From contig CAVRET010000001.1 of the NCBI GenBank assembly GCA_963720265.1, positions 325,916-389,915 of the forward strand: 64,000 nt of DNA, in the 5' to 3' direction. This DNA comes from an uncultured bacterium (GTDB lineage: Bacteria; Patescibacteriota; Saccharimonadia; UBA4664). Under the pieces are notes generated by a model, which had not been told where the DNA came from, ran no database searches, and worked only from the letters and a program-made list of their open reading frames with translations. This document shows positions 8,347 through 63,855 of this stretch, one piece after another. Both the position numbers and the translations under genes were made by a program. Within the stretch, counting starts at the first letter, position 1. Every line of letters starts with the position of its first letter.

Positions 8347-8715
8347 GCACGCAACTGATTACTATTGATAATTTTGTACTGCACCCGAGCTCCAGTGCCT
8401 CTTAAGCCACATTTCAAGACTTTATAACACTTATGTTTGACTATAGGGGGAACGGCTTAACTATTCAATAAAAACTGCAGATTTTAGGAGTCGGCGGGCG
8501 AATATCGCCTGTGATTTCTAATGATGAAAGAAGTACAGGCTTAGGTGTGCCGACCCAGCCTAGTAAGCATCAAAGAGCAATTAGGAACGCAGGTTTGAAG
8601 ACTTTCCGCCTTTACGCAGTCTGACACGAGCAGATTGATTACCTGCCGATCTTCTGCCCCGTGGTTGTTTCGGGAACTAATTTGTGGATTTGCTGCTCGA
8701 GTGCTTTCGCTAGCG

Positions 8716-12293: not shown

Positions 12294-13802
12294 ATGGCAC
12301 GAGATAAGTTCTTTGCTATAGTGAAATTTATGGAAAAGATTGGACTTGGTTATTTAACGGCTAGTGAGTTTGTATCTAGGCGATCAAGGACACTCACAGA
12401 TGATCCAAATGCGAGGCTGAATGAAGAGCACGAAATTGGGCAATATCTTGCCAAACTTGACCCCTCCTATAGGGACGCGATCGATTCCCTCGCCAAGACA
12501 AGAGACGAACCATTATGCAAAGAGATTGATACAGTCGTTACAATCATTGCGACCCAAGAAGGTTCAAGAATTGGGCACACATTAAATTCATATCTAAACC
12601 AAGATCTAGATCCGAAATTCTTTGAGATAATTATCTATGATGACCACTCGAGTACTATTTCTCGCGATAATACCTCAGAAGAGGTAGACAAATTTAAAAA
12701 AGCCAATCCGAACATTTCCGTCATCTATGCCTATAGAGTCAGGCAAGACGATGAATTCGCCACAGTTGGTAACGCGCGAAAGTATGGTTTTGATGTGGCG
12801 CTTGCAAGAATAGACGCTCGGGGTAAAAGCAACCACGAGACTATACTGATTAGTAACGATGCCGATACTGTTGAGCTAGACAAACACTATCTTTCAGCAA
12901 TCAGGCACGAGTTTCAGGTAAATACTGCGGCAGACGCGCTCGTAACACCAAGCACAGTGCCATTATCTGCAATGCGCAAACCCAATGTCTACGCCGCACT
13001 TGCGTTGTGGGATGCCATTGATGACTTTGTTGCCAAGCAAGAACCGCGCAATCTGGAAGGCAGAAGCAGTGCTTATAGAGCGTCAATCTATGCGGCGGTG
13101 GGCGGCTATAACCCGAAAGGGAAACTGGCCGGTGACCTGGAGACGGGATTTCTGATCGCAGATGCCAGGGGCTGGGATCCTCGCAGTGTGATTCAATTCG
13201 CAAAAACAGGGCTGTTAACTGACCCACGGAGAGTGTTGGAATCTGTGGCTAGTCGTATACCAATTAATGAGATGTACTATAAATTTGTATCGAGCCCAGA
13301 GGTGAGACACGCTAATAATGCTCAATTGCTTGATATGATTCCAGATAGTTTGGATTGGGAGCTGTTCGAGGAAGACGCCGATAGCTTTTTGGCTGGTGGC
13401 GATACCGGGATGTATAAGTGGCGAGGTGAAAGATTCAAAACTGACTTTAAGCAAGCGATGGGCAAAATCGGCGCTCAGTTTGTGACCAAGGGCAACCGGC
13501 TGTATTTAACCAACATCGACCAACTTATAGACAACTACAAGCATGATTTTGGTGATACACCACAGATCATTCATTCAACCCGACGGCCCTACGATCGGGA
13601 TAGGATAAAAAAAATTAAATTATTCTTCTCAACAGTCTCCGATAGCGCCATAGCCTGTCGAAAAAAACTTGCCGACCAGATTGCACAGGACCTCGAGCTC
13701 GCAAATCAACGAAATGATCTTAAACAAATAAGACACCTTCAAGGACAGTATGAAAGGTTTGCCGGGCATTTATACAAGCAACATAGCCGGCTAAGCAGTT
13801 AA
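12294..13802 (+). CDS. Glycosyltransferase family 2-like protein, 502 aa, in an AT-rich islet.
   Basis: VVTIIATQEGSRIGHTLNSYLNQDLDPKFFEIIIYDDHSS resembles the GT2 N-terminal signature (xIIIPtyN...FEIIvvDDgS). ILISNDADT supplies a DxD-like motif. Local GC is clearly lower than the flanks. Confidence 0.55.
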   Translation: MARDKFFAIVKFMEKIGLGYLTASEFVSRRSRTLTDDPNARLNEEHEIGQYLAKLDPSYRDAIDSLAKTRDEPLCKEIDTVVTIIATQEGSRIGHTLNSYLNQDLDPKFFEIIIYDDHSSTISRDNTSEEVDKFKKANPNISVIYAYRVRQDDEFATVGNARKYGFDVALARIDARGKSNHETILISNDADTVELDKHYLSAIRHEFQVNTAADALVTPSTVPLSAMRKPNVYAALALWDAIDDFVAKQEPRNLEGRSSAYRASIYAAVGGYNPKGKLAGDLETGFLIADARGWDPRSVIQFAKTGLLTDPRRVLESVASRIPINEMYYKFVSSPEVRHANNAQLLDMIPDSLDWELFEEDADSFLAGGDTGMYKWRGERFKTDFKQAMGKIGAQFVTKGNRLYLTNIDQLIDNYKHDFGDTPQIIHSTRRPYDRDRIKKIKLFFSTVSDSAIACRKKLADQIAQDLELANQRNDLKQIRHLQGQYERFAGHLYKQHSRLSS

Positions 13803-43900: not shown

Positions 43901-46900
43901 GAACGGCGGTGTACTCATTAATAGCCTTAGCTCGAGCGACACCCCGGTTACCGTTAATAGCAGTACCGGCGTGAGTACGCTCAAGATTGCGGACAGCGGT
44001 GCGACAACGTTTAAATCGTCGACCAATTCCACCACCGCCTTCCAGATACAGAATGCATCAGGTGAGGCTTTGCTTACGGCCGACACTACCAATACGGCAC
44101 TAGTTCTGGGTCAGGACAATACGCCCACCGATCTCACCGTCCGCGGTGGCGCCGCCAGCGGGCCAAATGTGGATGGCGGCGACATTACCTTCCAAGCTTC
44201 TAACGGCACTGGTGCTGCCGGCTCTGGTTCGCTCATCTTCCAAACTGCTCCGCCGGCCGGCGGGGGTGTTACCGAAGACAATTCCGGGACCTCAACCGCC
44301 AGTGCGTGTTCAACAGCCACCCTTAGCTTCACTACCGGATCCGGCTCAAACCGCTTGCTGCTCGTCGGAGCCGAAACCGGCGCCGGCGAGACCTACACTG
44401 CCGTGACCTACAATGGTACCAGCATGACGCAGCTGTCAACGCAGGACAGCGGGACCACGCACATTGAGCTGTGGTATCTGCTAAACCCTGCGTCAGGGGC
44501 GCATAACATTGTTGGCACCCTATCATCGACCCTGCATGGCTGCACGCTCGACGCAGTCTCATATGCCAACGTCAACCAAGTAACGCCGTTTGGTACGGCT
44601 GCCACTAATAGCGGCACAACTACGGGTTTGCAATCCACGAGCAATACCGTCAGCACCACCAGCGCTGCTCAAGTGGTGTTTGATGTTTTGGGGGCAGACG
44701 TCAGTGAGTCGATTGCACCCGGATCGGGCCAGACACAATTAGTAAACTTCCCGGGCACCGGGGGCTTCTACCCGCTGGGGGAGTCCAGCGCTCCGGGCAC
44801 GGGCGCCGCCGTTAACATGAATTGGGCCGTTAACTCGGCCGATTGGGCCGACATTGGCGTACCCATCAACCCGGTTGCCAATTCCACCGCCGACACCCTG
44901 CAAACCGTTCTGGATCTGGCCAACACGGGTAATGTCGGCATCGACAATTCCAACCCTCAGGAAACGCTCGATGTCGCCGGTACCGCCAATTTCCAGAACA
45001 CCACCAACTCCACCACCGCTTTCCAAGTGCAGAATGCGAGTGGCGCCAACCTCTTGACCGCCGATACGACTAACAACCAGATCCTGCTCGGCTCCGATAC
45101 CAACCTGATCCTCTCGGGGACCACCGCCTACATATCCAACCCTCAGGGCTATGGCGACAGTGAGGCTTTCGGAGCTGGTGCGTCGGTCACCTCGAGTAAT
45201 GCCACCGCCGTCGGCTACAATGCTAGCTCCTATTATGATGGGGCAGCAGTCGGGGATAATGCGGCCGCGGGCGGCTATGGCGTTGCACTTGGATACGATG
45301 CTGCCGCCACCTATGTAGGCACAGCCGTCGGCTCGGAATCGGATGCATCTGGGAACTACAGTACGGCGGTCGGTGGTGGAGCAGTCGCAGGGTCAAATTA
45401 CGCGACTGCGTTAGGCTACCTGGCAGCCGCTAACTCGGCTGACAGTATTGCGCTGGGCGCCGGATCTGTTACTAGCAGCGCGAACCAACTGGTTATTGGC
45501 AGTTCCACTGCCAATGGCGCCTATATTCAAGATGCCTACATCGGTTCGGGTATATCGGACATTGCGCCGCAGAGCATTACCGTGCACGCCACCGGCGGCA
45601 GTGGCAGCAACGTGGCCGGTGCCAACCTTAGCCTGGCCGGGGGTATCGGCACCGGTAATGCCAACGGCGGCAATATTAATCTCCAAGTTGCCAAGCCGGG
45701 GGTCAGCGGCTCGAGCGCTAATACGCTTGCAACCGTTGCATCCATCAGCGGCCTCAATGGCTCAGCGTTATTCCAAAATTCCACCGACTCCACCGCGGCT
45801 TTCCAAGTGCAGAACGCGAGTGGCACAAACCTGTTGGGCGTCGATACGTTCGACAGCACCGTGAGTCTAGGAGAAGCCGGTTCGGTCGGCGGTTCCGTGT
45901 ACGGTAAGACGGACATCGGCGGAACGGCGGGCTTCGGCTACTACGATGGCACCAGCGATGTACTTGCCGCCCAGCAGTTTAAGGCCACTGGAGGCGGTAC
46001 CATCTCGTCGCTGTCAACCTACATTGGTATGGTCAAATCTTCGCCGAACAACCAGGGCCAGATGGCAATCTACGCGGATAACGGCAGTAACGCGCCGGGC
46101 AGCTACATTGCATCCACAGGCGTCCACACGCTCACGGCCAACAGCTGGAACACCTGGTCAATAACCGACGGCACCGCCTCGTTGACAACAGGTAGTGAGT
46201 ACTGGCTGGTATATTGGACAAATGACGATGCCATTGATGGGGACAATGCACAGTACCTTGATACAGGCCAAGCCGGCCAGTTAGGGTACCTTTCCGACTA
46301 TGGGTCAGGCGTTAGCTTCGGCACCGGGCCCAATAACGGCATGCCGGCGACGATCCCTGGCGGAACTGTGCTCTCGGGTGCCTACTTCAGCATCTATGCG
46401 ACCTATGGCGGCTCGACTGCCGTACCAGTTACTATTGGTGCTGACGGCAGTGTGACGGCGCTTGGGGCGGCCACGTTCGGAGATTACCTAGATTCCACCA
46501 CCGCCTTCCAGGTGCAGAATGCGGCTGGGGCCAATCTGCTCGGTATCGACACCTCAGGCGACAATGTTAACGTCGGCTCTACGGGATCCACGGCGCTGGC
46601 CGGTACTATCAACGTCGGCACCTCCACCGGTGCGGCCCAGACCGTCAACGTCGGCTCAAACGACGGGGCATCGGCGACCACAATTCAGGGCGGCACCGGC
46701 AACGTCAACGTACTTTCAACTGCGAACATTACTCTGGGGCAGACCAGTACCAATGCCGGCGGAACGCTGGGCTATACCGGTATTGGTTCCAACGGGAACG
46801 GTTGTAGCGGAGGTTGTAATATTACAGCGTCGATGTTTACAACCACTAGTGGCGGTACCGTTGGGACAATGTCGGTGTACGTTAGCTCCCCGGCCTCGGG

Positions 46901-49142
46901 CGATCATTACCAATTTGCCATCTATAGTGACAATGCCGGGTCGCCGAATACCTACATTGCGTCATCCGCTGTGGGTACCCTCACTTCGGTCGCGGGTTGG
47001 TACACGCTGCCCATTACAGCGACACTCGCACCCAGCACCACCTACTGGATAACGTACGCTGATAATAGTGGAAATGACGGCATTAATTACAATAGCGGCC
47101 CGGCCGGTTATTATGTTTGCAATACCACGTTCACTTTCCAGAGCGGCCCGGATAACGGTTTTCCGGCCTCCTACCCAGGGGGTGGCAGCTGTTATCCAAC
47201 CACCCAGGCCAGCATTTATGCAACTTTCAGTGGTGGTACGCAGTCGGCAGTAACGATTAACAGTCTCGGCAACCTCACCGATACCGGTACGGCCAACTTT
47301 GAGGATACAAACGATTCCACCACCGCTTTCCAGGTGCAAAACTCTTCGAACGCGGCGGTGCTGAATGTGGATACGACGAATCAGGCGCTTAGTGTGGAGG
47401 CGTCGAACTCCTCAAGCACCACGCCGACGCTTAATGTAATTCAATCGGGTACCGGCGACGCCACGCTTTCGATACAGGATGCGGGGGCGAATTTCTACCA
47501 AGGCGTAAATGCCAACAATGGCAATGCCTTCACGATTAACTCCCAGTACGCTGCCACGCACAACTCGGATCTGGGTGAAGATTTCGAGTCCAGCGTGCCA
47601 AACGGCGATGACCAAAACTCCAGCTGGGCTGAGGCAACCGAGTTTACCGCCAGTTCTACCGGGACAATGTCGTCAATCAATGTGGCCTTTGATAGTCGAA
47701 TTAACTCCAGCAGTGTATTTTCGGTCGCTGTTTACTCAAATAACGCCGGCGCACCGGGTACGCTGTTGGGTTCATACAGCGGCACCCAGGTGATTCAGGT
47801 TCCGAACCCGGGGACGCTAAACATCAACTGGAATAACATTACACTGAATTCACCGGTGAGCGTCACGAGCGGTACGATCTATTGGCTCGCCTTCCAGGTG
47901 AACGACTCTTCAACGTTTGATGGCATTACTACTGGCGGTTTAAGCGCGTATCGGAGCGGCATCACCCCCGGGACCTGGGCTAACTGGAGCAGTATGGGCA
48001 CGAGCCAAGGCAATAGTACGGTTATAAACGGCGTGTATGCGGTGATTGATTCCAGTACATTGAGCGATACGTACGCAAACGGGCTGTTTTCGCTATCAAC
48101 GGCGGGTGCCGCGACGTTCCAGGGTGTTGCCGACTCGACCTCGGCTCTGACAGTGAAGAATGCGTCGGGCATACAGGTACTTAATGTCGATACGGCCAAC
48201 AGCAGCATTACGGTTAATAGCGCGGTAAACTCACCGGTGGCGTTCCAGGTCCAGAATCAATCAAATAACGACATTTTGACGGTTGACACAACCGATTCAC
48301 GAGTGGAAGTGGGTCCGAGCGGCGGAGGCACAACCGCTACATTATTGGTGCTGGGCATAAAGACCAGTTCCGGCGACCCAGCCGGTGTGACAGGGGCGAT
48401 GTATTATAACTCGAATACGGGTACATTCCGGTGCTACCAGAACAGTGCGTGGGTGAACTGTATTGCCACCGGACTTGGATCGTACCAGGTGCTCACCAGT
48501 ACCTCTGCCAACAGCACCTATACCACACCGGCCAATACCAAAGCGATTATGGTTGAGATGTGGGGTAGCGGTTCGGCGGGTGGTGGTGGCGGAGGCACTA
48601 CGGGTGATGGAGCTGCCGGTGCAGGGGGTGGGGCCGGTGGATACGCCCGCAAGGTTATCGTGGGTCCGGCCTCAACCTATAAGTACACGATCGCGGCCGG
48701 CGGTACTGCAGGTACAGCGGGTAACAACGCCGGTAACGCTCCGGGTTCCGCGAACTGTTTCGGTACCAACTCGACCGCTTGCAGCTCGCCGATTATTAGC
48801 TGCGCCGCCTCCACAGGCGGCGCCGGCATGGCCGCCGGTACAACCAATGCGGGGAGTACCGGCGGAGCCGGAGGCGCATGCACTGGAGGCGATCTCAACA
48901 CTACCGGGGCAGCGGGGCGAAACGGCTCGAGATGGTCTCAGACCGTGGCCCTATCGGGAGGTGGCGGAGGTACCCTCTTTGGTGACGGCGGATCTGGTAT
49001 TGGGCTGCAAGGGACCGGTATTACCGCTGGTAGTACCGTCTACGGCGCGGGCGGCGGCGGGGGCGTAGTGATCAACAGCGCTACTGCTACGGCCGGAGGT
49101 GCTGGGGCACAGGGCGTGATTATCGTTTGGGAATTTAAGTAA
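34911..49142 (+). CDS. Giant secreted modular surface protein, 4743 aa (alternative ATG start at 34965).
   Basis: Uninterrupted 14.2-kb ORF. Signal peptide MLRISLAFVAVGLVSVSLLTAGTARA. N-domain paralogous to giant 1. Three tandem ~276-aa CBM4_9-like modules (DDTFEGSG...AHGGSYSL...GHVYAFSAWVKA...SGWTQMTG...YLDDVTVTDE) carry a 66-bp perfect DNA repeat. Ancient internal duplication of an ~330-aa segment. 14 or more punctuation motifs. Gly-rich C-terminal tail. Confidence 0.85.
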   Translation: MRNWSLYGARTSRHVVQNMLRISLAFVAVGLVSVSLLTAGTARATSGTINDTMNFQGRLLTAAGAVVPDGNYNIEFKIYKNGDGQSTGDTTGSPSGTLLWTEDWLNNNSVTANTIPVVIKNGYFSVQLGSITTLPSTVTLDESVLWLSMTVAGSAGATSTSCTTFSACNSSGEPEMLPMKSLSAAPYAINAANANTLGGLTSSQFIQNTTSPQSSANIDIASGNAADPAAKLQQASSATAPVLTLELGGSPGVGGDLLDLQDSSTAVLDKFDSSGNLTLGNNSNKTISVAPAASGGGSSLTLMAGNGASGTNAGGNLILEAGASTGGAAGGSIIVKPQTDSTTAFQVENASGAALLTADAANTAIVLGQDTTPTNLTVRGGIASGSNVGGGNITFQASNGTGAAGSGSFVFQTAAPGGGITLDNTSYTGGSGNITLSFTTGSGSNRLLMVQAETNASRSFSGITYNGVSMTQVATENSLTNDDGVGAHVELWYLVNPASGTHNIVATMVGSGAGSLAAASFTNVNQTTPLGTAATGNGTASGTQQSSLSVATSAGQLVIDGIGTDVPSSGVGVDSPPASGQTQLWYSANSPSLYGAAGSTAPGTGSTVFMKWNVTNADWADIAVPINPASNSTADTLNNDLVIANSGNVGIDNSSPQNTLDVSGTARVQSTTNSATAFQVQDASGSSLLDVDTANTVVNVGTAGSTAVNVGGTAGSIGRTSIGSVQDVGANNLIVGYQYTAPSTGSIGSMSAYIGANVQSSPYNQYQFALYSDNGSNAPNAYLASSAVGTEAANTWNTLPISYSVTSGTKYWLVMWTNTTNSADNAPNGDTNVASSYVAYTTGQTFGSGPDNGFPATFPTPTYDASQYPDSVYASYNSTSGPAVTVSSTGTLGVYGSAIFESGSDSTTAFQIQNASAASLFNVDTSNDVVDVGATGTTGPSTTVNIGTSSNAAQTVNLGSTDGASATTIQGGTGNVSINTGAGSGSTGSITVESGNSSGGDSGNITVDTGTNSPGGTVVEDDTFEGSGTGSVDGYTNNDSSVTPTASNTTAHGGSYSLKLTEAGSYWYAFNAGTQSVTPGHVYAFSAWVKAASTSETMSGYLYWACGDDTYHAWGFATAVSSGWTQMTGTLTAPAVNSGCSPGTETVSMGITDNTFGGSSGEIQYLDDVTVTDESLITEPSVDIGTSNAQAVNIGGNNAGQYGPTTVEGGGGISLLAGTGASVNIGTSNSNNVTVGDASDIDSTTLQGGTLGVSINTGAQSGTTGAITLESGNSSGGDSGNVNIDTGTNSPGGTQVQDDTFEGSGSGSMDGYDNNDDGLSAISASNTTAHSGSYSLKVTESSAYWFANTSEDTTVTSGHVYAFSAWVKAASTGESIDANVYWGCSIGGIVQWGSATSTSSGWTQITGTATAPALYPGCIPGDEFAQLTFGGIAGTSGQIEYIDDATITDESSITEPSVNIGTLNAQAVNIGGNNAGQYGPTTVEGGGGISLLAGSGAPITIGTGNSNNVTVGDAYDEDATTLQGGSNGVSINTGDNYDGTGSISITTGNSTSDTAGNITIDTGTSTFSGSQVEDDDFETGTDTFGCWFGCVSATQSAAEAHGGSDSLAVAEDGSGSWGVIEGYPGVAATPGHEYAFTAWVRGTAAETVSADAFFPGSVGPGDTYDTVTDSTSGWTELTGDMTAPVGATNVYLGFTGGTAGGGATDYIDDITITDLGTVSAPNIAIGGTNAQQVTIGNENEGGYTSIYGGGDGISLQTSNGGTVALGTVNQSNISIGAVGSSTEDDVVQIDDTSGGGTSIVDIGGTATNDGSDTASTVNIQGGQTGLVVANAGATLQTYTDSTTALQVQNSSGGDVLNVDTTDGQVTAGNTNTARAEQEWDSHGTNQATLSDAPQADGDLLMLAVSIPSTSVTVSSVSGGGVSSWSNATSYTDSTVGYRTEIWEGTVTGAGAGTITVNYSSTPGGGCELAAQEFSAGVGAGWSVVATGHAVNSSSTTVTFPSLTATQTGQMYWGYMGAERVGAAGSYPGFSYVPTGYQNVIGYDTDLAEGTVYTPTASQSPAGTSLGSAVIISVTDGNALTVNGAETITNTNSINALQVQNSAGTSLLGIDTVNSQETIGTSDTTTFGNTYDAATAPEGGFGAGYYWDGVSQQELVAQSFTTAGGGPLSSLSTYVGTNGISSTNKLYQMAVYSDNAGQPGTYIASTAVGNLGSSAGWKTLPITATLASDTTYWLVYWTNVNDNNNNGQDIINTLRGTSNTQMWGTYENWQCSSGCGSSTNGMPNTYPTSGNNTTNGTIASIYATFANNLPALQIDSAGNSIQDGTALFQSQTDSDTALVVNNADDQPVLQVATTFNGVGVDCSPDGNYNLTVCAGGNGNGGGLSDLGYSYQLLNVQNDGNTYLGVDSINADVQSGDLSVGNSVNNLNGPGLLVSDNFESGNFSLWSGGSSGGESVTTSEAHSGRYSAETNVSSSTGYARTSFSSTSTTFTLNAWVWAHVLPTSGELPLFTLYQASTPTNKVQLYTDQNGCLGVINGTTDLGTDSCGTFIGDDDWNNIAISINRTTGEIALYAGLGYMYYGAQGSDYTGLTIGSGWDTLDMGVTSSNTGQYWVDDLAFGTGITPSLANGLTVQDSLHASGSATFGGQVLVQPASNSATAFQVQNASGYSVLSADTSSNSGQGQVVLGSSSNNNGTLLFDNSAGSSQVGLAVTSSNTNTYTLDLPIAVPSTNQCLLSGSSTPTQLTFGSCASGSAGINNQTTTQSNANFNIQSAGAADVGGVIQGASSQTADLLDLRDSASGNLAVVSAAGNEESLGYIDNAGIGGIGQYGNLLLDSEQLDQGGVSTPPWSTNSASLVVTANNTTAPDGNTTAEKLAGTGNVNISQSESTSAVATTYTFSVWLKQSSGAGTSGLCIYSTAGTPSSCTATAVTPNSTDWQRFSVTQAVTGSPTAITAEILPGNGSTATIYAWGAQLVVGTTPEVYTRTTAAAVAASSGVVTNGGVLINSLSSSDTPVTVNSSTGVSTLKIADSGATTFKSSTNSTTAFQIQNASGEALLTADTTNTALVLGQDNTPTDLTVRGGAASGPNVDGGDITFQASNGTGAAGSGSLIFQTAPPAGGGVTEDNSGTSTASACSTATLSFTTGSGSNRLLLVGAETGAGETYTAVTYNGTSMTQLSTQDSGTTHIELWYLLNPASGAHNIVGTLSSTLHGCTLDAVSYANVNQVTPFGTAATNSGTTTGLQSTSNTVSTTSAAQVVFDVLGADVSESIAPGSGQTQLVNFPGTGGFYPLGESSAPGTGAAVNMNWAVNSADWADIGVPINPVANSTADTLQTVLDLANTGNVGIDNSNPQETLDVAGTANFQNTTNSTTAFQVQNASGANLLTADTTNNQILLGSDTNLILSGTTAYISNPQGYGDSEAFGAGASVTSSNATAVGYNASSYYDGAAVGDNAAAGGYGVALGYDAAATYVGTAVGSESDASGNYSTAVGGGAVAGSNYATALGYLAAANSADSIALGAGSVTSSANQLVIGSSTANGAYIQDAYIGSGISDIAPQSITVHATGGSGSNVAGANLSLAGGIGTGNANGGNINLQVAKPGVSGSSANTLATVASISGLNGSALFQNSTDSTAAFQVQNASGTNLLGVDTFDSTVSLGEAGSVGGSVYGKTDIGGTAGFGYYDGTSDVLAAQQFKATGGGTISSLSTYIGMVKSSPNNQGQMAIYADNGSNAPGSYIASTGVHTLTANSWNTWSITDGTASLTTGSEYWLVYWTNDDAIDGDNAQYLDTGQAGQLGYLSDYGSGVSFGTGPNNGMPATIPGGTVLSGAYFSIYATYGGSTAVPVTIGADGSVTALGAATFGDYLDSTTAFQVQNAAGANLLGIDTSGDNVNVGSTGSTALAGTINVGTSTGAAQTVNVGSNDGASATTIQGGTGNVNVLSTANITLGQTSTNAGGTLGYTGIGSNGNGCSGGCNITASMFTTTSGGTVGTMSVYVSSPASGDHYQFAIYSDNAGSPNTYIASSAVGTLTSVAGWYTLPITATLAPSTTYWITYADNSGNDGINYNSGPAGYYVCNTTFTFQSGPDNGFPASYPGGGSCYPTTQASIYATFSGGTQSAVTINSLGNLTDTGTANFEDTNDSTTAFQVQNSSNAAVLNVDTTNQALSVEASNSSSTTPTLNVIQSGTGDATLSIQDAGANFYQGVNANNGNAFTINSQYAATHNSDLGEDFESSVPNGDDQNSSWAEATEFTASSTGTMSSINVAFDSRINSSSVFSVAVYSNNAGAPGTLLGSYSGTQVIQVPNPGTLNINWNNITLNSPVSVTSGTIYWLAFQVNDSSTFDGITTGGLSAYRSGITPGTWANWSSMGTSQGNSTVINGVYAVIDSSTLSDTYANGLFSLSTAGAATFQGVADSTSALTVKNASGIQVLNVDTANSSITVNSAVNSPVAFQVQNQSNNDILTVDTTDSRVEVGPSGGGTTATLLVLGIKTSSGDPAGVTGAMYYNSNTGTFRCYQNSAWVNCIATGLGSYQVLTSTSANSTYTTPANTKAIMVEMWGSGSAGGGGGGTTGDGAAGAGGGAGGYARKVIVGPASTYKYTIAAGGTAGTAGNNAGNAPGSANCFGTNSTACSSPIISCAASTGGAGMAAGTTNAGSTGGAGGACTGGDLNTTGAAGRNGSRWSQTVALSGGGGGTLFGDGGSGIGLQGTGITAGSTVYGAGGGGGVVINSATATAGGAGAQGVIIVWEFK

Positions 49143-52293: not shown

Positions 52294-53190
52294 TTATACC
52301 TGGTTTTGGAGTCTGGCGAGGACTGTGGCAAGGTCGGACGGTAACTGGCTCACCAGGTGCAGTTGCTTGCCATTTGGGGCTGTAAATTCGAGCTCGGCGG
52401 CGTGGAGAAACTGGCGTTTCAGCCCAAGCGGCCGAGTTTTGGGTCCATACACGATATCTCCGGCAACGGGGTGACCGAGTGCGGCCAAATGCACTCGAAT
52501 TTGGTGTGTCCGGCCAGTTTGCGGTTTAACCTCGATCTGACTATACCCGGGATACGTCTCGAGTGTGCGGTAGGTTGTTATAGCCGGCTTGCCGGTGGAA
52601 GTAACCAGACGCCGCAGGGGACGGGCCGGGTCGCGGCTGAGCGGCAGGTCAATGGCGGCGGCGGGGGGCTTGAGGGTGCCGATTGCAAGTGCCCGGTAGG
52701 TTTTATGAACGGTGCGCTTGCGGAATTGTTGTTGCAGTACCGCTTTGGCCGCAGTGGTTTTGGCAATGACGAGGAGGCCGGAAGTGTCGCGGTCGAGCCG
52801 GTGTACAATGCCGGGACGCTCCGGGTCCGGGTCGGTAGTGCGCTGCCTGGCGAAGTCGGCCACGGTCGAACTACCGCCGAGCCTGGCTGGGTGTACCGTA
52901 AGGCCGGCCGGTTTATCAACGACCAGCAAATCGGCATCTTCGTAGATGACTGTAAGCACAGGTGCGGCGCTGGGTAGCGGCGCTTTGGGAAGTTCTAGGT
53001 CAATCTCATCTCCCGGTTGGACTGCATAGCTCGCCCGTTCCGGCTGGTTGTTTACGCTTACCGAACCGTTTTTCAATAGTCGTCCGACAAAGCTGCGGGT
53101 TTGGCCGGTGGCAGATGCCAAGAAAACATCAAGCCGCCCAGGCCCAGCGTCTGCAGGAACGGTCAAGTGGGTTGGTGAATTTTCGGTCAC
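52294..53190 (-). CDS. rluD: RluA-family 23S rRNA pseudouridine synthase (RluD-like), with an N-terminal S4 domain.
   Basis: HRLDRDTSGLLVIAKT catalytic motif. N-terminal S4-like segment. 298 aa. Confidence 0.8.
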   Translation of the reverse strand: MTENSPTHLTVPADAGPGRLDVFLASATGQTRSFVGRLLKNGSVSVNNQPERASYAVQPGDEIDLELPKAPLPSAAPVLTVIYEDADLLVVDKPAGLTVHPARLGGSSTVADFARQRTTDPDPERPGIVHRLDRDTSGLLVIAKTTAAKAVLQQQFRKRTVHKTYRALAIGTLKPPAAAIDLPLSRDPARPLRRLVTSTGKPAITTYRTLETYPGYSQIEVKPQTGRTHQIRVHLAALGHPVAGDIVYGPKTRPLGLKRQFLHAAELEFTAPNGKQLHLVSQLPSDLATVLARLQNQV

Positions 53191-54182
53191 CGGATGAGTG
53201 CGGAGGCAGATGTGAGTTCGCGTTTGGGTCCGAGAATAATCAGCCGGTCGCCTGGATAAATGATTTCTTGACCGGTTGGGCGGACGCGACTCACGCCGTC
53301 GGCGCCGTTAATGGCAATTACGGTGGCACCGATTTGACCTTCGGCCAGTGATTTGCCAAGCCGATGCCCGGCCAGTTTGGAGTGCTCTCCTACTACCATC
53401 TCTTCGACTTCGAGATCAGCGTGGTCGGCTTTACTGGAGATAATATCCATATAATCGACCACGTTGGGTCTGAGCGCCATGGATGCCATATGGTAGCCGC
53501 CGATCTGATACGGCATGGCGACGCGGTTGGCGCCGGCCCGTTTGAGTTTGATTTCGTTTTCCGGCCGGTTGGCGCGGGCCACAATGTAAAGGTTTGGATT
53601 AAGCGAGCGAGCGGCGAGCGTGACGAACAGGTTAAGCGAATCCTCGCCTAAACAGGCCACGAGTCCGGCGGCCCGGCTGACGCCAACTTGCTGGAGCGTC
53701 TCCTCGGCCGTTGAGTCGAGCGGCAACGCATTGTAGCCCTTCGTTAGCGCGTCGGTGACCTTGGCTTGATCACGGTCAAGTCCAACAAACGGCACACCCT
53801 CGTGCTCCATTTCGGCTGCCACTTGGGCGCCGACTCGTCCGAGGCCGCAAATTATGTAATGATCCTTTAGCTTGTCGACTTTGGCCTTCACCCGAAACTT
53901 CCGCACGTTATCGCTTAAGCCCATCATATATTCGGCCAGCCATTTGAGCAAATAGGCGATAAGGGCGAGGCTTGATAGGGTAAGGAAGATAACTAGGGCC
54001 CGCGATACCGGGTCCGTTAGTTGGAGACTGTCGGAGCGATCGAGCAGGATAATGAGGGTTTCATAAAAAGCATTGCCCGGCGATACGTGGCCGGACCAAA
54101 CAAACCCCACCGTGCCAATTACAACTACGACACCCGTAATTATGGACAGCCGCCAGACTGTGCGAGCGTTGTGTTCTTGCAT
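53187..54182 (-). CDS. RCK/TrkA-N domain ion-channel-like membrane protein.
   Basis: Two N-terminal TM helices, then Rossmann IICGLGRVGAQVA (TrkA-N) and a TrkA-C-like C-terminus. A canonical TVGYG filter is not obvious. Confidence 0.7.
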   Translation of the reverse strand: MQEHNARTVWRLSIITGVVVVIGTVGFVWSGHVSPGNAFYETLIILLDRSDSLQLTDPVSRALVIFLTLSSLALIAYLLKWLAEYMMGLSDNVRKFRVKAKVDKLKDHYIICGLGRVGAQVAAEMEHEGVPFVGLDRDQAKVTDALTKGYNALPLDSTAEETLQQVGVSRAAGLVACLGEDSLNLFVTLAARSLNPNLYIVARANRPENEIKLKRAGANRVAMPYQIGGYHMASMALRPNVVDYMDIISSKADHADLEVEEMVVGEHSKLAGHRLGKSLAEGQIGATVIAINGADGVSRVRPTGQEIIYPGDRLIILGPKRELTSASALIR

Positions 54183-54287
54183 GTACTTGTATTATACCGC
54201 TTGAGGTTTGGTTGGTGCCAGAATGCGCACGACGTAGGGTGATGTAGACCGACCATTTCCGGTAGTAGCACCCGAGAAATGGTCGGT

Positions 54288-54806
54288 CTAGGCAACAGGT
54301 TGGATGAGCTGGTAAGCGTTGGGGCGTGTGCCGATTCCACGCTCAACTTGCAGCAACCCTTGCTCAACCATGGCCATTCTCACGGCATACATGAGATCGC
54401 GGCGAAACGGCAATTCGTGCTCATCCGCCAGTACGTTCAGCTCGATGTCACTGCCTTCCCAGCATCCCTGTTCGTTGCAGATGATGCGCAGAAGCTTGAG
54501 CGCGGCGTCGGCAAGGCGTGCGATAACGAGAGGCCCACCTGTGGGGTACTTTCGCCAAACCCGCAAGATCGCTTCTCGCCCATCGGAGGTTGGCAGAAGG
54601 TTGGCAAACTGAACTCGTTCGGCGGGTTGCATGCCGCCCCACATGTCATCTGGAATGTTGTGTTCAAGGGCGTGGTCGAGACATTTGGATAGTACCGGGC
54701 AAGACCAGCAAATGCTTCTTGCGTATGTCTGTTGACCTAGAGCGTGAAAATGTATTTTGCCAGTGACCGCACAGGCGGCGCGGCTATACCATTCGGGTTC
54801 AGACAT
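54288..54806 (-). CDS. WhiB-like (Wbl) Fe-S transcription factor with a ~90-aa C-terminal extension.
   Basis: Four Cys in the WhiB arrangement (AAC at 12; ICWSCPVLSKC) plus DMWGGM turn motif. 172 aa. Confidence 0.7.
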   Translation of the reverse strand: MSEPEWYSRAACAVTGKIHFHALGQQTYARSICWSCPVLSKCLDHALEHNIPDDMWGGMQPAERVQFANLLPTSDGREAILRVWRKYPTGGPLVIARLADAALKLLRIICNEQGCWEGSDIELNVLADEHELPFRRDLMYAVRMAMVEQGLLQVERGIGTRPNAYQLIQPVA

Positions 54807-54847
54807 TCGTCCAGCCTCTCCTGATTGAGTGGTCGTAATAGTGATAT

Positions 54848-54907
54848 CGCTTGAGGCCCGGCTTTCGTCGCTCTTTTGCGCGTGGGTCGCGAGTTGACAA
54901 GCCGGCC
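54848..54907 (-). repeat. Direct repeat copy C: a ~60-bp duplicate of the 3' end of the rpsI coding sequence.
   Basis: On the minus strand it reads AGLSTRDPRAKERRKPGLKR, matching uS9 residues AGLLTRDPREKERQKPGLKR, then diverges into the WhiB-like start region. Aligns to 57425..57483. Confidence 0.8.
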
Positions 54908-54936
54908 GTCCCCGTCTGATCAGGGAACGGCCGGCC
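54893..54936 (-). terminator. GC-rich hairpin downstream of the 215-aa ORF (putative terminator / cassette boundary).
   Basis: Perfect inverted repeat ggccggccgttccc-tgatcagac-gggaacggccggc on the minus strand. The U-tract is weak (TTGTCAA). Confidence 0.4.
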
Positions 54937-54971
54937 TTAGTGGAGAGCAGCTCGAGTCGGATGAGTGCCCG

Positions 54972-55619
54972 CTAGGCGGCGATCTCGGAATCATCGAGAT
55001 CGAGCACCAGCTGTAGGGCGTACCACGTCTCGAGCGTGCCGGTGATGTTGAGCCAGCCGCACTGCAGTCCGTAGTCGAGTACGGCAACAGCGGCGTCGTA
55101 ATCATCGGCGAACCGGGTTTCCTTGAATGCGTCGCACACGAGACCGACCGCTATCGAACTCCTGCTGGATCCGGTCATTGTGTGGCCCGGCCGTCCCAGG
55201 AGGTAGGCCGTGACCAGTGCCCGCTGGTCAGACAGGAGGTTGCGGGGGCGACGGCGGATTTGAGCCGGCGGCCACGGCGGTTTGGGCAGCATCTCCCGAA
55301 GCACTGAGGCGAGCTCGGCCGGCGGGGCCGAAACGAGCTGGAGGTCGTAAAGGCCGGTGAGCCTGGCGATACGCCAGTGCACGAGCGTGTTGTCGAGTGT
55401 TGCTAGGAGCCTAACGTAGCCGCCTTGGAACTCGACGGCGCGGCAGAGCTCGGCGAATGCGGTCCGTCCCTGTATTCGCATCTTCGCACAGTTGAGCAAA
55501 TACCCAACTACGCGGCAGCACAGGACCGGGCCGGAGTCCAGGAACAATCGCCACTGTTCGTCGGTAACGACGTCCTTTCGCGGATCGCGAGGAGGCGCCT
55601 CCATGGTGTCTGCTGCCAT
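54972..55619 (-). CDS. Hypothetical 215-aa protein (cassette ORF).
   Basis: Intact ORF ending ...DSEIAA. Its last two codons plus stop plus 9 nt (gtgcccgctaggcggc on plus) are identical to the 3' end of the 197-aa ORF. No known domain. Confidence 0.5.
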   Translation of the reverse strand: MAADTMEAPPRDPRKDVVTDEQWRLFLDSGPVLCCRVVGYLLNCAKMRIQGRTAFAELCRAVEFQGGYVRLLATLDNTLVHWRIARLTGLYDLQLVSAPPAELASVLREMLPKPPWPPAQIRRRPRNLLSDQRALVTAYLLGRPGHTMTGSSRSSIAVGLVCDAFKETRFADDYDAAVAVLDYGLQCGWLNITGTLETWYALQLVLDLDDSEIAA

Positions 55620-55876
55620 TTTTCCCCCTTCGCGGAAATTGGCAGGGATAGGGTCGATTGGCTTGGCTTATATTTCGAGTTACAACTGCAACCGTGGCCA
55701 TTATTTCAGATACATGAAGTTCGGTCAAAAACAAGCCCTCGGCGTGCGAAGCCGCCCGTTTCTGCTCATTTAACATAGCAGAGACGGGCGGCGACGAGGA
55801 TCCGGCGGTGCCGGCCCTTGAGTGGCCGCTAGGGCCAGATTGCGGAGCGGCGATATTGTGAACGACGTTCGTCCGC

Positions 55877-56251
55877 TTAGCGCAGATGTCCGGCTCGAAG
55901 CATGGCCGTTACCGGCGCACTTTGGACGGCTTCAATGAGATCGAAGGGTACGTTCGTGACAAAATCGTCGGCGGACTGTCGTTCGTACTCCTCGCGAGCG
56001 AGTTGGAGAAGCTCGCGCCACGAGGTGACCGCAGACCTGCGTCGCAAAAGGGCTCTGCGCTCGCGCTCGGTCATGCCGCCCCAGACACCGAATTCGATGC
56101 CGTTGTCGAGCGCATCGGCCAGGCACTCGGTGCGAACCGGGCACCCGCGACAGATGAGTTTCGCGCGGTTCTGAGCCGCACCTTGGACGAACAGTTCGTT
56201 CGTATCGGTGCCTTTGCAGGCGGCGCGAGTGGTCCAGTCGGTGATCCACAT
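55877..56251 (-). CDS. whiB: WhiB-family transcription factor (classical).
   Basis: AACKG, ICRGCPVRTEC and FGVWGGMTERERRAL. Full WhiB signature, 124 aa. Confidence 0.85.
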   Translation of the reverse strand: MWITDWTTRAACKGTDTNELFVQGAAQNRAKLICRGCPVRTECLADALDNGIEFGVWGGMTERERRALLRRRSAVTSWRELLQLAREEYERQSADDFVTNVPFDLIEAVQSAPVTAMLRAGHLR

Positions 56252-56445: not shown

Positions 56446-56538
56446 AGCGCTTGGAGAACCGTGACGCTTTGCGGGCGCGCTTGTGGCCCGGCTTCCGTCA
56501 CTTTTTTTGCGCGTTGGTTGCGAGTTAATAGGCCGGCC
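56446..56538 (-). repeat. Direct repeat copy B: a ~93-bp duplicate of the 3' end of rpsI.
   Basis: ~85% identical to 57393..57483. On the minus strand it encodes *RKPGHKRARKASRFSKR*, versus real uS9 ...QKPGLKRARKASQFSKR*. Confidence 0.85.
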
Positions 56539-56550
56539 ATGCAGTGCGTG

Positions 56551-56596
56551 AAAAAAGCCAGCCGGCCGCCCCCAGGTGGTACGGGGACGGCCGGGC
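56551..56596 (-). terminator. Intrinsic terminator downstream of the 197-aa ORF.
   Basis: On the minus strand: gcccggccgtcccc-gtaccacctg-ggggcggccggc hairpin followed by TTTTTT. Confidence 0.6.
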
Positions 56597-56633
56597 GTGT
56601 TGCGGTGCCACTCGACATTGACCTGCGTGCCCG

Positions 56634-57227
56634 CTAGGCGGCCGTCGCGCTGGTGGTAAGCGCTTGTGAAGCGTAGTAAAGCTCCGCTCCAGGACTGCGC
56701 AGCCAGGTGATGCGAACGCCGGCGAAATCCGTGTCACCGATCAGTTCGTGCGCTGCCATTGCACGGATCTGAGTGCGCGCGCGAGCGGTGGGTATCCCGG
56801 CCCGGCGGGCGAAGTCTACGTCGGACAGTCCAGCGAGGCTGTAGTCGGTACGCGGTCCCAGCTCGATCAGGAATGTGAGCATCACCGCGACCAGCGCAGG
56901 ATCTGGACTAATCGTCGGCTTAGGGGGCCGATAGTTGGGCGGGTCTGCCATGAGCTTGAGCACCGGCATCTGTGCGGGATCGGTATTTACAGTGATGGTA
57001 GTTTCGACCGATGCCGGCAGGGAGACCGTAAAGACGCCGACGCCGTGCGATGTGGTGACGAGGTTCTCTTTGCGTGTCTCGGCCAACGTATCGATGACCT
57101 GGCCGATGCCAGACCACCCCAGTGCGTCCCGGATCCGGCGATAGGCGGTGACCACGGTGGCGCCGGTTATTGGCCCTTGGCTGAGTAGATCGAGAAGTTG
57201 GTTTACTTGGGCGTCCACTCGTGACAC
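56634..57227 (-). CDS. Hypothetical 197-aa protein (cassette ORF).
   Basis: Intact ORF ending ...TTSATAA, sharing the 3' boundary sequence with the 215-aa ORF. No known domain. Confidence 0.5.
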   Translation of the reverse strand: MSRVDAQVNQLLDLLSQGPITGATVVTAYRRIRDALGWSGIGQVIDTLAETRKENLVTTSHGVGVFTVSLPASVETTITVNTDPAQMPVLKLMADPPNYRPPKPTISPDPALVAVMLTFLIELGPRTDYSLAGLSDVDFARRAGIPTARARTQIRAMAAHELIGDTDFAGVRITWLRSPGAELYYASQALTTSATAA

Positions 57228-57390: not shown

Positions 57391-57789
57391 TTAGCGCTTG
57401 GAGAACTGTGACGCTTTGCGGGCGCGCTTGAGGCCCGGCTTTTGCCGCTCTTTTTCGCGCGGGTCACGAGTTAACAAGCCGGCCTTTCTGAGGGTTGGAT
57501 GAAGGTCGGTGCTCATGACTTGAAGGGCGCGGGCGATGGCTAGTTTGGCGGCATCGGCCTGGCCACGCTTGCCGCCGCCTTTGAGGTTTAGCGTAATGCG
57601 TAACTTTTGTTCTTGGCCGGCCAACTTAACCGGACTCTCGACCGCTGTAAGCAGGGCTGCATTGTTGAAATAATCGGCAGCAGGGCGCTCGCCTACTAGG
57701 ATTTCGCCTTTGCCGGGGTAGATTCTAACCGTGGCAATGGCGGCCTTGCGCCGGCCGCGGGCGTAGTGATAATGCTGGGCATCAGCCAT
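57391..57789 (-). CDS. rpsI: 30S ribosomal protein S9.
   Basis: YARGRRKAAIATVRIYPGKG ... C-terminal PGLKRARKASQFSKR. The last ~95 nt (57393..57483) are the master copy of repeats B and C. Confidence 0.9.
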   Translation of the reverse strand: MADAQHYHYARGRRKAAIATVRIYPGKGEILVGERPAADYFNNAALLTAVESPVKLAGQEQKLRITLNLKGGGKRGQADAAKLAIARALQVMSTDLHPTLRKAGLLTRDPREKERQKPGLKRARKASQFSKR

Positions 57790-61603: not shown

Positions 61604-62554
61604 TTAGTGCGTTTCGCGACCTAATTCAAGATCTCGCTTGATGATTTCCTTGCGCAGCCACAGACGGCCGGCCTTGGCGACGTCTCGATGAAACTCCAGC
61701 CCAAGTAGGTTGGACAGCCAAACCTGGATTTGTTGGTCGTCGGTTATCACGTAACTGCAGCGATCCTTGAGGCTGATTACGTTCATAAACCAGTTGGGCT
61801 TTTTACTTTGCAAGGTGCGCTTTATTGCCTGTTGCTGATTTAGAATAGGACCTGCATCCCATATCACGAGCTGACCGACGCTGATCGCATGCTCGAACAT
61901 TTCGAACTTTAGTACCTTTGAATCATTGAGAACGGCCGCTTCGAAATCACCCAAAATTGTCCGTTCGCACTCAGTGAAGTATTGGGCCGGCCAGTCGTCG
62001 GTAAGGGCGGTGCGTTGCCGTAGATCCTTGTAAGCAGTCCGATCGCGATCGGTAGTGACTGACGCGCCGAAGTTGAGCGTGTTATCAAGGATGCCGGCCA
62101 TAAGGAGCTTGGTGCTGGTTTCGCTCATTTGATTAAGCAGCCCGGCCCGCTGCCAGCGTTCGTAGATTTGGGTGCAAGCAGCACCAATGAATTCAACGTC
62201 AAGCTTAACGCAGGGTCGTTCTGACCAATATTTCTCAAAACCTACGTGGTGATCTATGACTTCGACAACATGGTCCAAATTGACGAACCGATCGAAATGA
62301 TCCGGGTCAGAGACATCAATGAGTGCAAACACGTCATTCGGCACGGATTGATAATCTGTCTCGAATTCAGCCTTCAAACTCCGTAGGGTTGATGGGACAC
62401 TCTCGTTGAGCGGCGACGTGCTGGCGGCAATTGCTGTGTGTCCCTGGGTGCGTAGGAGTTCTGCATAGGCTACGCAGCCGGCGTAGCCGTCGATATCGAG
62501 GTACGGTTTGCCCGATGTGACAACGATCCTAGGTTTTGGCCTAGTATTGCTCAT
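61604..62554 (-). CDS. DHH-family phosphoesterase (NrnA / nanoRNase-pAp phosphatase-like). The ORF is open to 62599.
   Basis: DIDGYAG (motif I), VIDHHV (DHH motif III), GILDNT. Occupies the secY-infA interval where adk and map usually lie. Confidence 0.65.
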   Translation of the reverse strand: MSNTRPKPRIVVTSGKPYLDIDGYAGCVAYAELLRTQGHTAIAASTSPLNESVPSTLRSLKAEFETDYQSVPNDVFALIDVSDPDHFDRFVNLDHVVEVIDHHVGFEKYWSERPCVKLDVEFIGAACTQIYERWQRAGLLNQMSETSTKLLMAGILDNTLNFGASVTTDRDRTAYKDLRQRTALTDDWPAQYFTECERTILGDFEAAVLNDSKVLKFEMFEHAISVGQLVIWDAGPILNQQQAIKRTLQSKKPNWFMNVISLKDRCSYVITDDQQIQVWLSNLLGLEFHRDVAKAGRLWLRKEIIKRDLELGRETH

Positions 62555-63855
62555 AGCTGGTGGTAATCGCCTGGGCTTCGAGCTGTTTGAGCGTCTCAAT
62601 GGCTACTGAGACCACGATCAGCAGGCCGGTGCCACCAAAGGTGAGGACCTGCGAGTTGGTGAACGATTGAGCGATAAACGGCAAGACCGCGATGATGCCG
62701 AGGCCGAGGGCGCCGGCCAGGGTGATACGGTCGCAATACGCGACCCAGGTAAGTGGCGGTTTGGTTGCCGGGCCGGATGCCGGGGATAAAGCCGCCCTGT
62801 TTTTGTAAGTTTTCGGCAATGTCTTTGGGGTTGAATACAACTGAAGTATAGAAATACGTAAAACCGACTACGAGAAGGAAGTAGCAGGCAGCGTAGATTC
62901 CACCCGAGGGATTGAACCAGGTGGTAAGGTTCTGCGCCAGGCTGGCTACCCAATGGGTCTTGGCATTGGTGAGTACTTGGCCAAGGAGTCCGGGCACACT
63001 CAGGAAGGCCAGGGCAAAGATAATCGGGATGACGCCGGCTGTAATAACGCGCAGTGGCAAATGGGTGTCGACGCCGGCATAGACGCGGTTGCCGCGGGTG
63101 CGTTTAGCGTAACTGACCGGAATATTGCGGGTGCCCTCGTTGAGCACAACCACAAAGGCAATGATCAGCAGAACTCCGATTAGAAACGCGATAAGGGTGA
63201 CGATTTTGCCGGTGTCGCCTGAAGCTAGGGTAGCAATTTGGCCGGCCGAGCCCGGGATACGCGCAATAATGCCACAGAAAATGATGAGCGAAATGCCGTT
63301 GCCAATCCCCTTTTCCGTGATGATTTCGCCCATCCACATGAGCAGCATGGTGCCGGCGGTAATGGTTGTTACCATTAGGGCCCACTGGAATAGGTCAGGA
63401 TGACCGATGAGATCGACGTTATCGATGCGCTCAGAGGTCTGCTGGATGAGGAATACCATGCCGAAGGATTGGATAAGTGCGAGCGGCAGCGTTAGCATGC
63501 GCGTGTATTGGTTGAGCTTGCGCCGGCCCTGCTCCCCTTCTTTGTTAAGTGCCTCGAGCTGTGGGATTACCTGCGTAAGGAGCTGAATAATGATGGAGGC
63601 GTTAATGTATGGCCCCACGCCCATCATAATGATGGAGAAGTTGGCCAAGGCGCCGCCTGTAAAGACGTCGGCAAACCCAAGTACACTGTTGGAAGCAAAG
63701 ACGGTTTTGAGGAAGGTGGCGAGTTGGGCGTTGTTGGGCACCGGTACAGGGATGTGGGCCAGTAGCCGGAAAATTACAAGCAAACCAAGAACAACGAGCA
63801 CCCTTCGGCGCAGATCTGGGGATCGATAGACCTGCTTAAGGGTACTGAGGTTCAT
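62541..63855 (-). CDS. secY: Preprotein translocase SecY, with an apparent +1 frameshift near 62733.
   Basis: The N-terminal 370 aa lie in frame 1: ...ENLQKQGGFIPGIRPGNQTATYLGRVL. The C-terminus lies in another frame: RITLAGALGLGIIAVLPFIAQSFTNSQVLTFGGTGLLIVVSVAIETLKQLEAQAITTSYEQY. The junction is at ttg-c-gaccgtatc. Confidence 0.8.

Follow-up and report, generated by a model that had tools for sequence, protein, structure and literature searches.

How do two WhiB-like (Wbl) regulators come to stand in the genome of an organism that is not an actinobacterium? The question is raised by a short block of genes between rpsI and a trkA-like gene in the stretch of contig CAVRET010000001.1 analyzed here, which is 64 kb long and is referred to as the window. 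Wbl proteins are called exclusive to Actinobacteria and actinophages in reviews up to 2026 and in a primary paper from 2026 (PMC6282962, PMC13013590), in agreement with an earlier note on this DNA that had drawn attention to the two genes and to this restriction. Full-text searches for Wbl or WhiB in Saccharibacteria, Patescibacteria, or the candidate phyla radiation (CPR) found no report. Public annotation pipelines give such sequences their Pfam label; they are not hidden, only undiscussed. Both open reading frames (ORFs) that the earlier note assigned to the WhiB family were recovered on the minus strand, with scores above the PF02467 gathering score of 23.6 bits:

55877..56251, minus strand: W124, a Wbl of the WblA/WhiB4 type, 124 amino acids (PF02467, E=6.5e-25, 87.9 bits)

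54288..54806, minus strand: W172, a divergent Wbl, 172 amino acids (PF02467, E=9.4e-15, 55.4 bits, residues 6–65)

The 64-kb window contains no further Wbl gene. We propose, with a probability of roughly 0.72, that modules were inserted serially at the 3′ end of rpsI, that W124 was captured from an actinobacterium, and that the two Wbls act as modulators of transcription in the epibiont that carries them.

The first point to settle is the identity of the organism, which the earlier note had considered to be possibly actinobacterial. We compared RpoA of the window with one genome per GTDB species. The best 17–18 loci showed 67–83% identity, and most of them are titled as Saccharimonadia, Saccharimonadales, or Saccharibacteria metagenome-assembled genomes (MAGs). 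At lower ranks follow distant Saccharimonadales (50–57%) and then Chloroflexota and Clostridia (∼45%). RpoA, SecY, S13, S11, S4, L17, L13, S9, TrkA, RluD, HolB, and the TPR protein all find their best matches (72–84%) in Saccharimonadia/Saccharibacteria MAGs. An orthologue of each flanking protein is present in those loci in conserved order, which reads secY, a DHH-family gene, rpsM, rpsK, rpsD, rpoA, rplQ, rplM, and rpsI upstream of the block and the trkA-like gene, rluD, holB, and the TPR gene downstream of it. Because of the RpoA matches and the orthologous flanking genes in the same order, the source organism belongs to the class Saccharimonadia (TM7; CPR/Patescibacteria; phylum Saccharimonadota in the NCBI taxonomy) and is not an actinobacterium.

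W124 consists of a ∼100-residue WblA body followed by a 24-residue extra tail. The textbook WhiB features that had been noted, four cysteines and a GVWGGM turn, are indeed present (Cys-12, Cys-34, Cys-37, and Cys-43). Against solved structures, W124 scored 108.7 bits with WhiB4 of Mycobacterium tuberculosis (PDB code 7f7n), whereas WhiB1, WhiB, WhiB3, and WhiB7 reached at most 61 bits. The top 120 relatives among 5.8 billion protein clusters share 73–94% identity over ∼100 residues, and the named ones among them are actinobacterial WhiB regulators, such as those of Planobispora rosea and Streptosporangiaceae. The nearest relatives, P0002 and P0004 (87–92% identity; 87–90% over ∼100 residues), are encoded on contigs of 69% GC in a neighborhood composed of a large PBP-like gene, WhiB, two ArsA-like ATPases, Band7, RidA, MBL, and Crp. 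We take this gene order to be that of M. tuberculosis Rv3676–Rv3683, the canonical whiB4/wblA locus.

Over an 80-residue core, W124 is 85–92.5% identical to actinobacterial WblA proteins, whereas M. tuberculosis WhiB4 is 60–66% identical to the same proteins. Because it is closer to the WblA set than WhiB4 is, W124 is nested inside the actinobacterial class IV Wbl diversity, indicating a transfer in the direction from Actinobacteria to Saccharimonadia. Acquisition from actinobacterial hosts, one of the two routes put forward in the earlier note, is thus well supported for W124 (85–92% identity to WblA in the canonical whiB4 context). Compared with the sampled actinobacterial genes, W124 shows ∼82% nucleotide identity, a saturated synonymous divergence (dS) of at least 1.15, and a ratio of nonsynonymous to synonymous divergence (dN/dS) of 0.01–0.05; 2 of the first 72 residues differ from the sampled proteins. 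W124 is under strong purifying selection, and the saturated dS implies that its donor is unsampled or that the transfer is not recent.

At the C terminus, canonical WblA ends in ...YERQSIDELVAS-stop, and W124 reads ...YERQSADDFVTN plus the 24 further residues. An Arg/Lys-rich segment follows the turn (MTERERRALLRRR), and a Shine-Dalgarno sequence, AGGAG, lies 7 nt ahead of the ATG. The gene stands outside the canonical ponA2/whiB4/ArsA-like/crp neighborhood and is bracketed by relic rpsI 3′ ends (see below). Among the relatives, we also observed an actinobacterial contig of 67% GC (L083, positions 1–9220) that carries two WblA paralogues (198 and 304 residues) in an island with Trypco1, Trypsin_2-nSTAND1, and a 1191-residue protein. 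The island resembles a conflict system, and the C-terminal region of the 304-residue paralogue looks, by eye, like sigma region 4. Class IV Wbl cores have therefore been recruited into new architectures within Actinobacteria as well.

The second route put forward earlier was by actinophage. Stated more broadly, the Wbl genes may have arrived on an actinophage or an actinobacterial plasmid, or the block may be a decayed prophage or integrative element of such origin. Actinophages often carry Wbl genes, the PHROG Wbl families match both proteins, and 64 phage and 133 plasmid records match as well. Yet the best phage-record match to W124 reaches 67%, the best IMG/VR contig 60%, and the best plasmid matches 72–78%, compared with 87–92% for chromosomal WblA in its canonical context. 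Because the phage and plasmid identities are lower, a chromosomal-type donor gene is favored over a phage or plasmid paralogue. We consider a phage or plasmid origin unlikely; such a vehicle is possible, yet the similarity of W124 lends it no support. The tail-fiber motif that the earlier note cited in favor of acquisition, from hosts or actinophages, lies ∼35 kb from the block, and no link to the block was found.

W172 is organized differently. Its Wbl domain (residues 1 to ∼67) is followed by a C-terminal domain of ∼105 residues (∼68–172), so that the extra domain claimed earlier exists but is longer than the ∼90 residues given for it. The Wbl domain is 41% identical to W124. It contains Cys-12, Cys-33, Cys-36, and Cys-42, to which the C-terminal domain adds Cys-110 and Cys-115, and its turn reads DMWGGM, with WGG kept and the first two positions changed. 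Scores of 34 bits with WhiB (class II), 30 bits with WhiB4, and 28 bits with WhiB3 do not decide a class assignment. After the turn, W172 reads MQPAERVQFANLLPTSDG and is without the Arg-rich segment by which W124 and other Wbls come near DNA; the orphan domain takes its place.

We compared W172 exhaustively with 1.84 billion cluster representatives by HMMER and obtained 1941 proteins at E ≤0.001. Nearly all of the best 150 of these align with residues 1 to ∼70–100 only, at no more than 54 bits, and no relative of the C-terminal domain is found among the matches listed. That domain has no match in Pfam, NCBIfam, PHROG, or PADLOC either. A word-indexed cluster search with W172 returned the protein itself only, and viral contigs gave no match. 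The nearest relative of the Wbl domain is P0124 (47% identity, 54 bits), one of two tandem Wbl genes on a 1.9-kb contig (L084, 899–1680). This mini-contig may be viral and is a point in favor of the phage or plasmid route. The Wbl domain of W172 scores similarly against phage and cellular families. The AlphaFold2 model (14-sequence alignment) is all-helical and of low confidence, with a predicted local distance difference test score (pLDDT) of 48.8. Judged from its sequence, W172 represents a new Wbl architecture, in which a Wbl core devoid of the basic tail is joined to an orphan domain.

How the two genes came to lie in one block is suggested by the DNA around them. The slot between rpsI and trkA measures 3.2 kb and encodes O197, W124, O215, and W172. 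From the rpsI side to the trkA side, it contains the following features:

57391..57484, minus strand: copy A, the native rpsI 3′ end (ribosomal protein S9, PF00380; repeat families D1 and D2)

56634..57227, minus strand: O197, an ORFan of 197 amino acids in the module next to rpsI; no family match; GC content at third codon positions (GC3) 0.70

56555..56650, minus strand: distal end of module M1, with an ORF-end motif, a spacer, a palindrome (13-bp arms, 56594–56562), and a T-run; homologous to the M2 end; a terminator-like site

56446..56538, minus strand: copy B, a relic of the rpsI 3′ end between O197 and W124; 96% identical to copy A over 49 nt, E=1.7e-18

55751..55792, minus strand: hairpin with a 16-bp stem after the W124 stop codon (inverted repeat I4), then a T-rich tract; probable terminator (terminator-like site 55751–55737)

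54972..55619, minus strand: O215, an ORFan of 215 amino acids in the W124 module; no family match; GC3 0.76

54895..54990, minus strand: distal end of module M2, with a matching ORF-end motif, a spacer, and a palindrome (54935–54901); repeats D3, I1, and I9

54848..54907, minus strand: copy C, which lies between O215 and W172 and is a truncated rpsI 3′-end relic; 90% identical to copy A over 60 nt, E=1.7e-15

53187..54182, minus strand: the trkA-like gene (TrkA_N and TrkA_C), which forms the conserved flank downstream of the slot

The block thus comprises three modules, M1 with O197, M2 with W124 and O215, and M3 with W172, with rpsI 3′-end relics at their boundaries; the final ∼90 nt of rpsI recur twice within the block. 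Copy B is frameshifted and continues through the rpsI stop codon. Copy C is truncated at CCTCAAGCG. Copy B is matched by the rpsI 3′ ends of three relatives (L005, L003, and L010) and copy C by rpsI 3′ ends of relatives too. Such matches from other species show that both copies are genuine rpsI relics. The cassette-like structure described in the earlier note is therefore real and defined by these repeats, which form a compact, well-defined insertion hot spot in a streamlined genome.

Besides the relics, modules M1 and M2 share their distal ends. These show 71% identity over ∼95 nt and align with a score of 64, compared with 11 ± 4.5 for shuffled sequences. The shared stretch is not derived from rpsI but consists of the last ORF codons, the spacer, and the palindrome that abuts the rpsI copy. 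The three genes of M1 and M2 also have a higher GC3 (0.70–0.76; 0.71 for W124) than the backbone (0.57–0.67), and W172 has a GC3 of 0.60. The 9-nt string CCTCAAGCG occurs at 54848–54856, the end of copy C, and again at 54198–54206, just upstream of the trkA promoter, and so forms a direct repeat on either side of the W172 module. This repeat may mark a crossover or a point of microhomology, or it may be due to chance. A 22-nt segment upstream of trkA with 73% identity was considered as a fourth relic, copy D, and was set aside as probably the native trkA promoter region.

The relic copies between the modules point to serial insertion. The simplest reading would be that related small elements entered at the rpsI 3′ end in succession, W172 being the oldest arrival. 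We infer this rather than assert it because no recombinase gene was found. An integron was considered and rejected, since the block has neither an integrase gene nor attC-type sites and its repeats derive from rpsI. The modular build with att-like duplications is also what a phage-derived or plasmid-derived element might leave behind. The block, however, contains no phage structural, replication, or integrase genes, and O197 has no phage or plasmid match, O215 no relative among the 5.8 billion protein clusters, and W172 no viral relative.

At this point it might be asked whether the block belongs to the genome at all or is an assembly chimera or binning contamination with actinobacterial DNA. 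Among ∼15 billion public proteins, W124, W172, and O215 are each confined to one contig (for W124, the cluster table gives a contig of 567.8 kb, whereas an exact look-up among contigs had no record), the contig comes from a single MAG, and the GC3 of O197, W124, and O215 is mildly raised. However, the block is internal to a contig of 567.8 kb with Saccharimonadia genes in conserved order on both sides, and diverged Saccharimonadia rpsI 3′ relics bracket W124 within ∼200–900 nt. Moreover, the GC3 of W124 is intermediate when set against actinobacterial values of 0.78–0.93, and a sister lineage, represented by two independent assemblies, carries an analogous Wbl in this slot (see below). We therefore regard an artefact as extremely improbable.

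Comparison with related genomes shows what the slot looks like elsewhere. The genes rpsI, trkA, rluD, holB, and the TPR gene are kept across the ∼17 closest genomes, and the distance between rpsI and trkA varies. In five relatives (L005, L007, L008, L010, and L011) the slot is empty, with a spacing of 96–152 bp. Three of these (L005, L008, and L010) show a hairpin followed by a T-run, resembling a terminator, after rpsI, and a TATAAT-type element precedes trkA in the empty-slot relatives. By comparison with them, the native GGTATAATAC promoter element of trkA is kept in the window at ∼54195–54204. In eight relatives (L002, L003, L004, L006, L014, L016, L017, and L026) the slot measures 0.7–3.0 kb, and its contents are mutually unrelated. 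The earlier note had reasoned that WhiB orthologues at syntenic positions in an actinobacterial genome would make the genes merely normal; instead, five relatives have nothing in the slot, others have unrelated genes there, and none of the sampled relatives has a syntenic orthologue of W124 or W172. Relics of the rpsI 3′ end were not found in the slots of relatives, filled ones included, which makes the array specific to the window genome and not a clade-wide mechanism. Farther away, in more distant Saccharimonadales (L018–L030), the region between rpsI and rluD is without trkA and contains trpS and variable genes instead, among them racemase-like, NUDIX, and alpha/beta-hydrolase genes. The region 3′ of rpsI is variable across the whole order Saccharimonadales.

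Among the 80 loci compared, one other carries a Wbl gene in this slot. The sister lineage L004 encodes a 354-residue Wbl at 12431–13495 (plus strand), and the same arrangement is found in an independent Logan assembly, L112, where the gene lies at 2904–3968 (plus strand) in the order rpoA, rplQ, rplM, rpsI, Wbl, trkA, rluD, and holB. Like W172, this protein has a Wbl domain with a long non-Wbl C-terminal extension (∼250 residues) and sits in the same slot. It belongs to class II (89.8 bits with WhiB of Streptomyces venezuelae, 8dy7_H, versus 47 bits with WhiB4). Its turn reads GISGG, with Ser in place of the Trp at aromatic patch position 4 (AP4), and its extension has no relation to the C-terminal domain of W172. 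The slot of L004/L112 also differs from that of the window in being devoid of rpsI 3′ relics. The slot of another relative, L002, encodes a protein annotated as hypothetical (HSX02545.1, 212 residues; 12449–13087, plus strand), whose C-terminal segment is 34% identical over 71 residues to the end of the L004 Wbl fusion (...RALxNFxxxAxxAP...FW...). An extension domain of the L004 type therefore also exists without a Wbl domain.

That two Saccharimonadia lineages have Wbls of different classes in one slot speaks against an assembly artefact and also against simple vertical inheritance. That a Wbl was ancestral in this clade, passed on vertically, and lost in most relatives would explain why the window and L004/L112 share the slot, and W172, with its backbone-like codon composition and strong divergence, may be old. 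This explanation nevertheless seems very improbable. The window has class IV where L004 has class II, the short intergenic region is intact in five relatives and contains a terminator and a promoter of its own, W124 is nested in actinobacterial class IV, and none of the other ∼45 Saccharimonadia loci examined has a Wbl.

What could the two proteins do in their present host genome? Wbl proteins ligate a [4Fe-4S] cluster through four cysteines (C-Xn-C-X2-C-X5-C) and dock on region 4 of sigma-A, at a site centered on H516-P517, through the aromatic patch positions AP1–AP4 around the cluster pocket (PMC13013590). Binding of sigma-A has been tied to at least two aromatic residues in the patch, at least one of them at AP2–3; in WhiB4 these positions are occupied by L45 and F46, both of which are required (PMC13013590). 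By alignment, the patch of W124 is formed by W6, L20, F21, and W57, the Leu-Phe pattern of WhiB4 and class IV. The patch of W172 comprises W6, F20, H21, and W56 and thus holds at least two aromatic residues, with at least one at AP2–3. The His-Pro pair of the sigma factor is part of an RKLRHPSR motif that appears to be widely conserved in primary sigma factors beyond Actinobacteria.

W124 and W172 thus appear to keep every sequence feature for binding of a [4Fe-4S] cluster and for docking on sigma region 4. These features lead us to propose that both are most likely sigma-bound modulators of transcription, sensitive to O2, NO, or redox state, in the epibiont itself. WblA and WhiB4 are regulators of the oxidative-stress response (PMC6282962), and W124 would act like them, whereas W172 would use its novel domain instead of the basic tail. 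The case comes from a single MAG, and from its sequence we infer the function of the Wbls, that is, cluster binding, sigma binding, and a regulatory role, as well as the direction and mechanism of insertion.

Alternatively, the Wbl genes might be passengers in decay that have no role in the epibiont. The canonical stop codon is gone from W124 and a tail has been added, the basic tail is lost from W172, copy B is frameshifted, and the neighbors are ORFans. Yet both ORFs are intact, with four cysteines, turn, and aromatic patch; the core of W124 differs at 2 of 72 residues despite a dS above 1, and the gene has a canonical Shine-Dalgarno sequence and a terminator. The composition of W172 is fully ameliorated, and its frame is still open. 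Decay is accordingly quite improbable.

In the sequence of events that we favor, an arrangement in which rpsI is directly followed by the trkA-like gene, as in related species, would have received three modules in succession at the rpsI 3′ end, each leaving a relic copy. The module on the trkA side would carry an older, highly diverged Wbl, in which a novel and, as modeled, helical domain may have replaced the basic DNA-contacting tail. The middle module would have brought a wblA/whiB4 gene captured from an actinobacterium.

Several observations weigh against this proposal. Pfam scans of the block and of other window ORFs revealed no integrase, transposase, or other recombinase or mobility gene, O197 and O215 being unclassifiable, so that the mechanism of insertion is unproven, and the hairpins may simply be terminators. 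The block has no second independent assembly. As dS is saturated, selection that acted in the donor lineage and selection on the Saccharimonadia branch cannot be told apart. At a pLDDT of 48.8, no fold can be predicted for the C-terminal domain of W172, and the sequences compared contained no rpoD or Fe-S assembly genes by which compatibility could be judged.

The known hosts of cultured Saccharibacteria are Actinobacteria. In a bolder idea, to which we assign a low probability, W124, as an almost exact copy of the global regulator WblA of the host, and W172, as a remodeled second Wbl, may be kept for molecular mimicry. They would either tune the epibiont itself to the O2, NO, or redox cues of its host or, more radically, be delivered into the host, where they would compete for region 4 of sigma-A and so alter development or the responses to antibiotics and oxidative stress. 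The rpsI 3′ array would then be a previously undescribed site at which CPR genomes acquire mini-cassettes, with repeated capture of Wbl genes from different classes, class IV in the window and class II in L004/L112.

Neither O197 nor O215, the two ORFans of the block, matches Pfam, NCBIfam, PHROG, or PADLOC; O197 also has no match in phage and plasmid records, and O215 finds only itself among the 5.8 billion protein clusters. A hit to DUF2379 (E=0.074) in low-stringency scans of O197, O215, and the W172 C-terminal domain was disregarded. O215 has a promoter-like site at 55728–55700. Its AlphaFold2 model, computed from a single sequence, is unusable (pLDDT 42.2); the order helix-helix-helix-strand-strand-strand in residues 20–87 is loosely reminiscent of a winged helix and is not counted as evidence. 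We considered O197 and O215 as diverged duplicates and rejected this, as the protein comparison gave E=0.21 and only the last codons and the downstream DNA are homologous.

Elsewhere in the window, two giant ORFs on the plus strand probably encode cell-surface proteins of the epibiont. The first (19724–33103, 4459 residues) has a Kelch motif as its sole Pfam match, and the second (34911–49142, 4743 residues) matches three CBM_4_9 carbohydrate-binding domains and nothing else in Pfam. Just before them, a 662-residue protein (17654–19642, plus strand) combines pectate-lyase-like and right-handed β-helix domains with phage lower-baseplate BppL_N and DUF5907 motifs and is presumably the source of the tail-fiber motif mentioned in the earlier note. 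In bacterial ribosomal-protein superoperons, the position after secY is usually taken by adk and map; here, a DHH-family gene (61604–62599, minus strand) directly follows secY.

The locus provides a context-anchored counter-example to the accepted distribution of Wbl proteins, in a phylum whose cultured members are epibionts on Actinobacteria. It adds evidence for transfer from Actinobacteria to Saccharimonadia that involves a global regulator and not a metabolic gene, and it thereby hints, from the genome, at the host range of soil Saccharimonadia. A further question that it raises is whether a Wbl can work with a sigma factor that is not actinobacterial. Since the limit on the distribution of the family is no molecular criterion, it does not bar W124 and W172 from membership.

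Known systems resemble the locus in part. Islands that integrate at the 3′ ends of conserved genes, be they tRNA, tmRNA, or protein-coding genes, and build tandem arrays by duplicating these ends as attL and attR share with the block the direct, progressively truncated copies of the target that separate the cargo, the intact target gene, and the two modules with related ends. The block differs from them in its lack of an integrase or excisionase, the small size of its modules (0.6–1.6 kb with one or two genes), and its target, rpsI. WhiB-like proteins of actinophages and plasmids (PHROG 472 and 1333; gp58 of Mycobacterium phage MooMoo) are likewise small Wbls on mobile DNA, sometimes with C-terminal extras. 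In contrast to these, the Wbls of the window have no phage context, the identities amount to 40–67%, and the C-terminal domain of W172 has no phage relative. The closest counterparts of W124 are the class IV Wbls, namely WblA of Streptomyces, WhiB4 of M. tuberculosis (Rv3681c), and WhcA of Corynebacterium. With these it shares the length of the core, the C-X21-C-X2-C-X5-C spacing, the GVWGG turn, the ELF motif with Leu-Phe at AP2–AP3, the basic helix RRALLRRR, and the C terminus ...YERQS.D..V... It differs from them in its Saccharimonadia genome, its position in the rpsI–trkA slot, and its 24-residue extra tail. By all these sequence features, W124 belongs to a known family, here in a phylum where it was not expected.

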